This document shows positions 1 to 1,113 of a stretch of DNA of 1,113 nucleotides, one piece after another. The stretch comes from Escherichia coli (GTDB lineage Bacteria > Pseudomonadota > Gammaproteobacteria > Enterobacterales > Enterobacteriaceae): the NCBI RefSeq assembly GCF_003334255.1, contig NZ_QOWU01000173.1; one strand, given 5' to 3'. The position numbers are program-made. Every line of letters begins with the position of its first letter. Position 1 is the stretch's first letter.

Positions 1-1113
1 TTGAAATACAGGTTAGTCAGATATGTCAGCAGCCCAAACAGCAGACTCCCCAGCACGCCTATTGCCGCCCACTGAGACGGGGAAACCCTGTCCAGCAACT
101 GCAGGAACCAGTAGCCCGTTCCCACCGCTGACGTGGTGTATGACACACCTGTTGTGATTTTTTCCATCTGGTACATACCCCGTCTCCCGTACTCGGAAGC
201 TCACAACAACAAAAGGGCCACCAGCTCTTTACTGATGGCCCTGCCCCGCCGTTACAGCATTGTGCCCGGTTCGGGTTGTGTGTCTGTCATATCCGTCACC
301 GGTGACTCCGGCTGAATATCACCATTTTCCGTGGTGACATCTTCCGCCTGTGGTTCCGGAAGCAGTTCCGGGGATGGTTCCGGCTGTGCACCAAGCAATT
401 CATCCAGAATTGAATCCACTTCTGCATCAAGACGCGCCTCAAGGTTCTGCCGAAGTTGCTGTTTCAGTGCGCTCCGGACTTCTTCAGAGCGCAGGACTTC
501 CTTCACTGCCTCAGCAGTGACCAGCGATTTTATTTCTGACATAGGATTTTCTCGTTGAAAGGGGTTATTAAGAAGGTTGTTCCGGAATGAGTGGGGCTTC
601 TGTTTTTGCTCCGGCTGACTGACTGGCGCTGATTTTCTCTGCGGCCCTTTTATCAATCTGCCTGCGCCAGAAATCGCGCACTGCCCTGTACCCACCCGAA
701 AGAAGATACAGCACACAGACCGCCGTACAGAAGTACAGCATCACCTGATGAACAAATGTCATAGTTTCTTACCGTTATGGTTGACAATGAGAACTGTTTT
801 CATTTAAAAACCGATATACGAAAGCATCTTTTCTTTACATTCTCCATTGGGATTACCTCCGCCAGCTTCCGTTCCTGCCGCTGGCGGCTTTTTTTGCCGG
901 TTATGATGATGCCCGGCTTTCGTTAACTTTGACTGTGACCGTATCAAGCAGTACCGGATACGTCGCTTTTGCCCCCGTGATATCTGTCAGCGTCAGCGTA
1001 TCTGCTGTAAAGCCATCATTTGTCCACATCACAAGGTCAAACGCCGTCTGCTCTGTACCATCAATCACCGGAACGACTCTTTCGCTGTTATTTCCCGCAA
1101 AGCGGAAAACAAC

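Follow-up and report, generated by a model that had tools for sequence, protein, structure and literature searches.

The window analysed here, a stretch of 1,113 nucleotides from Escherichia coli, belongs to the late operon of a lambdoid prophage that resembles Shiga toxin phages. Its minus strand carries, in the order of transcription, the 3' end of a nanS-p-type sialate O-acetylesterase gene (901–1113), a gene for a small membrane protein of the DUF1378 family (568–762), which is the first late-strand gene past nanS-p, a gene for a DUF826 domain protein (252–542) and the 5' part of the class II holin gene S (1–176, start ATG at 176–174). The two small genes were assigned from the list of open reading frames together with the annotation of two prophage loci (L001 and L002) which are 99.6% identical to the window, and S was assigned from that same annotation; the stretch 1–176 is 99.4% identical to S of phage 933W. 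NCBIfam models gave no match for NanS-p, DUF1378 or DUF826.

In L001 and L002 the Q gene lies about 5 kb upstream (annotated at 14887–15270 in L001), and the order in these near-identical prophages, as in 933W, is Q-pR'-(morons/stx)-nanS-p-DUF1378-DUF826-S-R. The annotated order of 933W is Q, pR', qut, tRNAs, stx2AB, L0105 (nanS-p), L0106, S and R, so that the layout of a Q/pR' late operon is found in L001, L002 and 933W by gene order, with pR' and qut annotated in the last of them. Given this order, late transcription is best understood as Q-antiterminated read-through. Compared with the lambda-type late operon (Q, pR', tR', S R Rz), Q is likewise upstream, the class II holin, endolysin and spanin are likewise downstream, and all are on one strand; here, however, Q and S are separated by about 5 kb of inserted morons and sRNA genes (an earlier note on this DNA had allowed for intervening genes), and an extra conserved terminator-like hairpin is found directly upstream of S. 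Co-transcription of nanS-p from pR' under Q agrees with its induction by 1–2.4 logs upon mitomycin C treatment, along with stx2a (PMC10462455).

The minus-strand reading frame that ends with the TAA at 903–901, the position given in the earlier note, extends past the right edge of the window, which holds its last 70 codons (final residues ...TLTLTDITGAKATYPVLLDTVTVKVNESRASS). RefSeq annotates the gene in L001 and L002 as SASA family carbohydrate esterase / DUF6645. The esterase also decorates the capsid. The domain tests were run on the full-length L001 copy, of which only the last 70 residues fall within the window. They gave the Pfam domains DUF1737, SASA and DUF6645 (residues 3–50, 81–276 and 511–619), and matches to the structures of NanS (PDB ID: 3PT5, E 4e-114) and of the NanS-p C-terminal domain (PDB ID: 6YP6, E 4e-48, residues 448–656), that is, the NanS-p succession of a DUF1737 N-domain, an SGNH/SASA catalytic domain and a C-terminal jelly-roll. 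The C-terminal domain of NanS-p is known to be a lectin-like jelly-roll (PMC10462455), and in view of the two structural matches this is what the tail described in the earlier note as beta-strand-like corresponds to. The doubt expressed there that the gene resembles Q was well placed, since homology searches with full-length copies lead to NanS-p and not to the Q family; a Q antiterminator was rejected because Pfam finds no Q domain and the annotated Q gene is about 5 kb upstream. The NanS-p proteins of 933W (L0105) and phi24B (vb_24B_21/gp84) have the same DUF1737, SASA and C-terminal jelly-roll architecture, and their genes likewise follow stx or other morons. The C-terminal region in the window is nevertheless a different allele from that of 933W (65% nucleotide identity over 904–1113), and such variants are already known (PMC10462455).

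The only hairpin close to the nanS-p stop codon is formed by C859–C866 pairing with G880–G887 (8 bp, with a 13-nt loop at 867–879), and is followed on the plus strand by C888 and the T-run T889–T895. The minus transcript reads A7, the hairpin and then AGGUAAUCCC, and the hairpin therefore has no U-tract in that direction, as had been noticed before. The terminator scan calls the site at 859–887 for the plus strand only, and an intrinsic terminator of the minus strand after nanS-p was accordingly rejected. What the earlier reading overlooked is that this is a plus-strand intrinsic terminator (859–895, by sequence, terminator scan and folds) and not a failed minus-strand one. Its T-run stops 5 nt short of the nanS-p stop codon, and 1 nt short of the L0105 stop codon in 933W, and its stem is 98.9% paired across 24 distinct sequences.

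A strict promoter scan of the window gave no sites on either strand. With a relaxed scan, the best minus-strand site in 763–900 consists of TTGTCA (787–782), an 18-nt spacer and TATGAC (763–758); it scores 9/12, does not end in the invariant T and runs into the start codon of the following gene, which bears out the earlier statement that no convincing minus-strand promoter is present there. The accompanying statement that no same-strand terminator is present is true for 763–900, but not for the way to the holin. Between DUF826 and S, the terminator scan finds a minus-strand stem-loop (204–242) with a 12-bp stem at 242–214 and the T-rich tail UUUGUUGUUG at 213–204, and in 4 of the 12 predicted pairs both partners change across 12 distinct variants without loss of pairing. 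Closer to S, an invariant hairpin, CUUCCG-AGUA-CGGGAG (184–199, minus strand), overlaps the Shine-Dalgarno sequence, and may be similar to the sdi structure known from lambda S.

The missing terminator and promoter after nanS-p are unremarkable, as a lambdoid late operon needs neither there. Without a terminator of its own, nanS-p would be a moron-type passenger of the pR' transcript, like stx. To judge from gene order and the literature, this transcript would start several kb upstream and be made by RNA polymerase that is Q-modified and terminator-resistant, and so would continue into the downstream genes. The co-transcription with the upstream gene proposed in the earlier note thus stands as far as gene order and the induction data go; the lack of a terminator after nanS-p does not by itself prove free read-through into the lysis genes, because of the terminator-like hairpin on the same strand before S, past which only Q-modified polymerase is expected to proceed.

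Together with a promoter upstream of it, the hairpin at 859–887 defines a convergent, predicted and previously unannotated sRNA gene. The putative sigma-70-type promoter on the plus strand (781–810) consists of TTGACA at 781–786, an 18-nt spacer and TAAAAA at 805–810. With 10/12 it is the best promoter-like site in the whole window in the relaxed scan, and it is dropped by the strict scan because of its weak –10 element (4/6, final T missing). The equivalent promoter of 933W is TTGACA-N17-TAAAAA. The predicted small RNA is about 79 nt long (817–895, plus strand), with its start placed at 816–822 and its 3' end in the T-run. As in Esr41-type genes, a putative sigma-70 promoter precedes it and a Rho-independent terminator of the Hfq-module type, an 8-bp GC-rich stem followed by T7, forms its end. 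As a single sequence, the sRNA does not fold better than its shuffles (z –1.3), and there is little covariation: hardly anything varies in the terminator stem, and changes on both sides are confined to the poorly conserved 5' hairpin, in a model-fitted alignment. The best match to a Fur box in the whole window falls over the promoter (13/19 at 783–801) but is not significant, with 32 of 300 shuffles reaching at least 13.

Esr41 (EcOnc14, RF02676), an Hfq-dependent sRNA of about 70 nt encoded on the EHEC island SpLE1/OI-43, is homologous to the window sRNA over both promoter and transcript. In an Rfam search of the window (E ≤ 1), the Esr41 family appears at 821–895 with 20.5 bits and an E-value of 0.35, covering model positions 1–74 of 74. 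The score stays below the gathering score of this very narrow family model (102 bits), and the only other hit is a chance one to STnc470 at 208–242; there is none to STnc100. A covariance model (R1) was built from 17 phage copies only, with authentic Esr41 left out. It scores 104 bits on the window (817–895) and recovers authentic Esr41 in SpLE1 (L005:2996–3074) with 35.5 bits, at an E-value of 7e-8 in 45 kb and 4e-7 in 244 kb. The two genes agree at 81 positions when aligned, and they reach a local alignment score of 34, compared to 17.1 ± 2.4 for shuffled sequences, none of which (0/2000) scores as high. The core TTCTCCATtGGG-ATTaCCTCCGCCaGC is identical at 24 of 28 positions. Homology to authentic Esr41 in sequence and structure is thus statistically supported. 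The promoter layout is also the same (TTGACA-N18-TATATA-5 nt-+1 in Esr41, with an equally imperfect –10 element), and both transcripts end in a GC stem and poly-U terminator. The two differ in the sequence of the 5' hairpin, in the terminator loop, which is longer in the window sRNA, and in copy number, the window type being multicopy (up to 7 per genome). They also differ in location, as Esr41 lies beside iha/ter in SpLE1 and the window sRNA in the late operon of a lambdoid prophage; neither tblastn nor blastn found remnants of phage genes around Esr41 in SpLE1, and no flanking homology is left.

The M1 mutation of Esr41, in UUCUCCAUGGGG, abolishes control of chuA and cirA, and the M2 mutation, in CCCUCCGCC, is the corresponding one for bfr (PMC5286369, primer table EV8); pairing of these two seeds with chuA/cirA and bfr, respectively, was shown by compensatory mutation (PMC5286369). 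Their equivalents in the window sRNA are UUCUCCAUUGGG (840–851, plus strand) and ACCUCCGCC (855–863, plus strand, overlapping the 5' arm of the terminator), each with one substitution relative to Esr41. The predicted duplex of the window sRNA with the chuA ribosome-binding site has an energy of –19.7 kcal/mol, against –7.9 ± 2.2 for shuffles and –24.3 kcal/mol for Esr41. The 933W copy has further changes in both seeds and a predicted chuA duplex of –13.6 kcal/mol only. The prediction for bfr is uninformative, as the program paired other regions.

By position, the counterparts of the window sRNA are PasA and PasC of EPEC E2348/69 (EcOnc51/52 in EHEC), which are Hfq-bound and verified by Northern blot. 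They occupy the same slot between a sialate esterase gene and the holin, and the window sRNA is likewise intergenic between esterase and holin and antisense to both. They have in common with it a TTGACAA –35 element and a GCUGGC-U-run terminator arm, and the 3' end of PasC abuts the esterase stop codon as that of the window sRNA does. Model R1 gives them marginal scores (17.3 and 15.8 bits, E 0.008–0.02), in which only the 5' hairpin and terminator align, and pairwise local alignment covers only the terminator arm and T-run; the CUCCAU core is missing from PasA/PasC and the PasA seed is elsewhere. Identity with PasA/PasC was therefore rejected, the –35 element and terminator arm being all that is common, as was identity with HnrS (EcOnc10–12), which lies downstream of Rz. 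Prophage PP4 of E2348/69 is without esterase and DUF1378 genes. Convergent sRNAs are well known from the pR' moron region (PMC4104026). The AsxR/AgvB-type "anti-sRNAs" (Tree et al. 2014) are of the same design, being short sRNA genes beside morons and convergent with the late transcript; they lie between moron/stx and esterase, whereas the window sRNA lies past the esterase, and neither AsxR nor AgvB has an Rfam match in the window at E ≤ 1.

We consider it probable, at roughly 70%, that the late operon reads through past nanS-p and that a convergent sRNA gene, homologous to Esr41 and the positional counterpart of PasA/PasC, is located there. In a lysogen, pR' transcripts would stop at tR' and the sRNA would be made from its own promoter. 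It would then bind Hfq via its hairpin and poly-U tail, and repress host mRNAs via the conserved single-stranded core UUCUCCAUUGGG/ACCUCCGCC, which is predicted to pair with ribosome-binding sites, the one of chuA being an example. The terminator of the sRNA may also block antisense transcription into nanS-p. During lytic growth, late transcription over the sRNA promoter would occlude it.

The sRNA could instead act mainly in cis, with pairing (and RNase III cleavage) or interference between convergent transcription damping or uncoupling the expression of nanS-p and the genes downstream; in lysogens, this would be a safety lock against late transcription that leaks. The convergent arrangement is evident, the sRNA is fully complementary to the intercistronic nanS-p/DUF1378 part of the late mRNA, and the hairpin before S would provide a second lock. 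The 3' end abutting the esterase stop codon, as in PasC, also fits, and the RIL-seq partners of PasA include the 3' regions of esterase mRNAs (E2348C_0688 and E2348C_1246). However, the sRNA overlaps no ribosome-binding site, the DUF1378 ATG being 55 nt from its start, and what is conserved are the trans-acting seeds of Esr41 and not the whole antisense stretch, which makes a mainly cis-acting role unlikely. Action in cis and in trans are mutually compatible.

Among 5426 complete E. coli genomes, 947 have the sRNA gene, in 1993 copies altogether; it is present in 933W and in Sakai Sp5 (NC_002695.2 1272086–1272166, minus strand), and its annotation is absent from all 25 records listed. TTGACA is kept in 36 of the 38 distinct upstream sequences (80 viral loci and the window), and the CUCCAU core is invariant in an alignment of 22 sequences. 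These two elements, the 8-bp stem and at least 7 T are kept across alleles up to about 30% apart and adjoin four different esterase 3' ends, the esterase 3' end being swapped between alleles. Both this retention and the number of copies speak against the plus-strand element being a decayed Esr41/Pas-type relic or a recombination joint, with no useful transcription and a hairpin that now has no function. Such a relic would fit several observations. Tree et al. 2014 list 64 Hfq-CRAC orphan sites, none of which is the Sakai Sp5 copy, and their EcOnc list has no entry at the intergenic region downstream of nanS-p in Sp5 or Sp15. Between the window and 933W, conservation of the sRNA (82%) does not exceed that of the adjacent genes (79–85%), and the mosaic junction coincides exactly with the T-run. 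The weak –10 element would also fit, but authentic Esr41 has the same promoter layout and an equally imperfect –10. On balance, we regard a relic as improbable, slightly more so than a mainly cis-acting sRNA.

It is very unlikely that the hairpin acts on the minus strand, as a weak or bidirectional terminator or as a 3'-end stabiliser of nanS-p mRNA for polymerase not modified by Q. The same GC-rich stem does fold in the minus-strand RNA (centroid –17.2 kcal/mol), 14 nt past the stop codon, but this RNA folds no better than its shuffles (z –0.5), AGGUAAUCCC takes the place of a U-tract, and A7 ahead of the stem is the signature of a terminator of the other strand. A small protein encoded by the ATG-initiated plus-strand ORF at 777–926 (49 aa), with the hairpin inside it, can practically be dismissed, as this ORF is present in the window but not conserved across alleles, many of which are missing the start codon, while others have stop codons, and a 1-nt indel in an A-run shifts the frame after codon 11.

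Starting from the preferred reading of a convergent Esr41-type sRNA gene, it is conceivable, if somewhat less than probable, that the slot between nanS-p and the lysis genes is an exchangeable "sRNA cassette" site, that its Esr41-like allele is expressed in lysogens as an Hfq-dependent repressor of genes for haem and iron uptake of the host (chuA, cirA and bfr), and that Esr41 of SpLE1 is an escaped copy. At such a site, alleles (Esr41-like, PasA, PasC and others) would be swapped by recombination at the joint of terminator and stop codon. The Esr41-like allele is found in 933W, in Sp5 and in roughly every sixth sequenced E. coli. In a bolder extension, the sRNA and the terminator before S would form a double lock against transcripts from moron promoters or leaky late transcripts reaching the lysis genes.

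While the esterase gene and the Q-driven late operon were known, what is new is an unannotated sRNA gene of the Esr41 type, predicted from sequence, in numerous Stx and Stx-like prophages, with the reference phage 933W among them. The conserved terminator-like hairpin before S suggests how lysis may be insulated from Q-independent moron transcription. If expressed, the sRNA would join the AsxR, StxS, HnrS and Pas sRNAs, and deletion phenotypes of esr41 would be complicated in strains which carry such a paralogue. Acquisition of the phage would then alter the iron and haem uptake of its host through a second Esr41-like regulator, and control of LEE and motility may be altered as well.

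The entire 1113-nt window maps by megablast to E. coli lambdoid prophages, with best identities of 99.6% to RefSeq chromosomes and 98.7% to sequenced phages; Shiga-toxin phages such as 933W and VT2-Sakai match window positions 1-895 at ~86%. In the two best chromosomal matches every gene lies on the minus strand of the window, and their annotation places a SASA-family carbohydrate esterase upstream-most (in one of the two records as a DUF6645 pseudogene), followed by genes for a DUF1378 protein (568-762), a DUF826 protein (252-542) and a class II holin (S, start at 176), with lysozyme and spanin genes downstream of the holin. 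An "antiterminator Q family protein" is encoded ~5 kb upstream of the esterase stop, which bears out the suggestion in the earlier note that additional genes separate Q from S. The same order is found in the depositors' annotation of 933W (Q, pR', qut, terminators, tRNAs, stx2AB, L0105, L0106, S, R, Rz), where the tRNAs, stx2AB, L0105 and L0106 lie in between and L0105 is labelled similar to YjhS. One of the two chromosomal loci (L001) also carries an annotated "type I restriction endonuclease" gene (13622-14779, plus strand of the locus) directly downstream of Q on the opposite strand, which late transcription from pR' would cross in antisense. Upstream of its esterase, on the late (minus) strand, are three tandem STnc100/PasD-like sRNA copies (12112-12321, 12387-12560 and 12599-12804, with 165.6, 30.1 and 141.4 bits, respectively), the middle one being degenerate.

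The stop codon of the minus-strand reading frame, which leaves the window at the right edge, was confirmed at 903-901. Its full-length copy in L001 encodes 662 amino acids with the Pfam domains DUF1737 (3-50), SASA (81-276) and DUF6645 (511-619), and matches the solved structures of the NanS/YjhS esterase (3PT5, E 4e-114, residues 74-394) and of the NanS-p C-terminal domain (6YP6, E 4e-48, residues 448-656). From the position of the latter match it follows that the 70 residues encoded in the window are part of the C-terminal domain. Judged by these domains and matches, the upstream gene is the sialate O-acetylesterase gene nanS-p and not Q, which gives the full gene its identity and agrees with the earlier impression that it does not resemble Q. 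For gp84, the homologue in phi24B, a 2026 preprint reports that it decorates the capsid, to which it is bound via DUF1737 (10.64898/2026.04.10.717836). In Sakai Sp5 (L088, 5004-6313) nanS-p is split by IS629, and the Esr41-like gene and DUF1378 downstream of it are intact.

The earlier note also held that no terminator or convincing promoter interrupts the minus strand after this gene, an observation that was confirmed. A strict promoter scan was indeed empty on both strands, and the best relaxed minus-strand site in 763-900 (9/12) does not have the conserved final T and extends over the start codon of DUF1378. The only hairpin near the nanS-p stop pairs 859-866 with 880-887; the minus-strand RNA reads A7, the stem and then AGGUAAUCCC, without a U-tract. 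The earlier reading of this hairpin as a non-terminator therefore holds for the minus strand but not for the plus strand, on which a C and seven T (889-895) follow the stem; the terminator scan calls the hairpin on that strand only. The best promoter-like site of the whole window in the relaxed scan is likewise on the plus strand (TTGACA 781-786, N18, TAAAAA 805-810), its -10 being imperfect. The promoter spacer holds a near-palindrome, AATGAGAAC-T-GTTTTCATT (783-801, plus strand), which is the best Fur-box-like match of the window (13/19, not significant against shuffles); its equivalents in the promoters of Esr41 and 933W reach 12/19.

At a permissive Rfam threshold, plus-strand 821-895 aligns weakly but over the full length to Esr41 (20.5 bits against a gathering score of 102). 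The authentic Esr41 locus (L005, in SpLE1 beside iha) reads TTGACA-N18-TATATA-5 nt-GATGC...CCGCCGGC-loop-GCTGGCG-T7, and its window counterpart reads TTGACA-N18-TAAAAA, then ~79 nt that end in CCGCCAGC-loop-GCTGGCGG-C-T7. The gene-to-gene alignment has 81 identical positions, with 24 of 28 identical in the core TTCTCCATTGGG-ATTACCTCCGCCAGC, and its local score of 34 was reached by none of 2000 shuffles (17.1+-2.4). R1, a covariance model that is based on 17 distinct phage copies and does not include Esr41, matches window 817-895 (104 bits, E 7e-27), the copies of 933W (87 bits, E 2.6e-21) and Sakai Sp5 (87 bits, E 3.8e-22), and authentic Esr41 (35.5 bits, E 7e-8 to 4e-7). On this homology, the 859-887 hairpin is the terminator of an unannotated, predicted sRNA gene of the Esr41 family. 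A coding explanation for the element is excluded, since the plus-strand ORF that overlaps it is not conserved. Single-sequence folding of the predicted sRNA is unremarkable, its conservation between the window and 933W is no better than that of the flanking genes, and the 64 orphan Hfq sites listed by Tree et al. (2014) do not include the Sakai Sp5 copy.

Of 5426 complete E. coli genomes, 947 carry the 117-nt promoter-to-terminator unit (1993 copies; median 2, maximum 7 per genome), and none of the 25 records listed has an annotated feature under it. Eighty viral contigs retrieved via the DUF1378 protein gave, with the window's own, 38 distinct upstream regions. Conserved across phage copies are the -35, the -10 (TAAAAA or TAGAAA), the CUCCAU core, the CCGCC.G stem and a T-run of 7 or more; variation is seen in the stretch downstream of the -10, in the 5' hairpin and in the terminator loop. 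In the model-fitted alignment the terminator stem is almost invariant, and covariation is found solely in the loosely conserved 5' hairpin. Directly after the T-run, the esterase 3' end is swapped for at least four unrelated sequences. Homology between prophage lineages stops exactly at the end of the T-run, beside the esterase stop, which marks a mosaic joint (window 889-903; L087, 5372-5382); in 933W the end of the T-run precedes the esterase stop codon by 1 nt.

PasA and PasC of EPEC E2348/69 are Hfq-dependent, Northern blot-verified sRNAs. They are encoded antisense to the sialate esterase and holin genes between which they lie, and PasC ends beside the stop codon of the esterase (PMC8550237 Table S6; 10.64898/2026.05.13.724894). 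Their geometry is that of the window gene, whereas the sequence in common is limited to the TTGACAA -35 and the GCUGGC-U-run arm; with R1 their E-values are 0.008 and 0.02, and its alignment takes in the 5' hairpin and the terminator without the core. We read them as positional alleles, at most distant relatives. Rfam Esr41 matches are mentioned in a 2026 preprint as frequent near PasD, on the other side of the esterase (10.64898/2026.05.13.724894), and probably represent the window-type element. A third, unrelated allele without TTGACA occupies the slot upstream of DUF1378 in L030-L032, with a different hairpin (GGCCAGCGCCCGG...CCGGCGCTGGC, then TCTTTTTT) whose arms, GCCAGCG/CGCTGGC, are PasC-like by visual comparison only. 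Two identical marginal R1 matches in E2348/69 (L003 3105-3164 and L004 3016-3075, plus strand; 17.3 bits, E 0.008) lie downstream of PasA and PasC on the late strand and end in a terminator-like hairpin, GCCGTCAGTG..CACTGGCGGC-T6; these sequences could be the convergent partner of the PasA/PasC terminators.

According to the primers listed by Waters et al. (PMC5286369, Table EV8), the mutations made in Esr41 fall at the GGG in UUCUCCAUGGGG, where chuA and cirA control was first abolished and then restored, and at CCCUCCGCC, where bfr control was tested likewise. The window equivalents, UUCUCCAUUGGG (840-851) and ACCUCCGCC (855-863), differ from Esr41 by one change each, and no other unpaired part of the family alignment is as well conserved; in the 933W allele both are altered further. 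With the chuA ribosome-binding site, whose wild-type triplet was inferred from the compensatory primer, the window sRNA is predicted to form a duplex of -19.7 kcal/mol, compared with -24.3 for Esr41 and -7.9+-2.2 for shuffled sRNA bodies.

In the lysogen, transcription of the sRNA gene would start at its own promoter, run towards nanS-p and end at its own terminator, 5 nt before the nanS-p stop codon. The RNA would be expected to bind Hfq via its hairpin and poly-U and, given the homology with Esr41, to act in trans through its two seeds on ribosome-binding sites such as that of chuA. The sRNA may also act in cis on the late mRNA, which would be compatible with this; the RIL-seq chimeras of PasA with esterase mRNA 3' ends hint at such contacts.

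On the late strand, transcripts of Q-modified polymerase from pR' would pass stx or other morons, nanS-p and the antisense image of the sRNA gene, and continue via DUF1378, DUF826 and a pre-S hairpin into S, R and Rz. This is suggested by the gene order, by the established knowledge of lambda Q and by the induction of nanS-p with mitomycin C (1-2.4 logs, parallel to stx2a; PMC10462455), and the constant position of nanS-p between Q and S has been read as Q control (PMC10462455). The read-through into the downstream genes proposed in the earlier note is thus in line with the established picture, and essentially textbook, for the Stx-type late region. The conserved pre-S element (204-242, minus strand) lies after the stop of DUF826 and ahead of the S start and is terminator-like by scan: a 12-bp stem-loop (242-214) is followed by a T-rich tail, UUUGUUGUUG. 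Its stem varies in sequence with pairing kept across 12 distinct variants, and at 4 of the 12 predicted pairs both sides change with pairing retained. Directly after it comes an invariant hairpin that includes the S Shine-Dalgarno (199-184, minus strand). Therefore nanS-p, DUF1378 and DUF826 have no separating terminators, but S is preceded by one, and the two hairpins point to an insulation of S against Q-independent transcription. We infer that the lysis genes would be efficiently reached by Q-modified polymerase only, which fits the moron concept.
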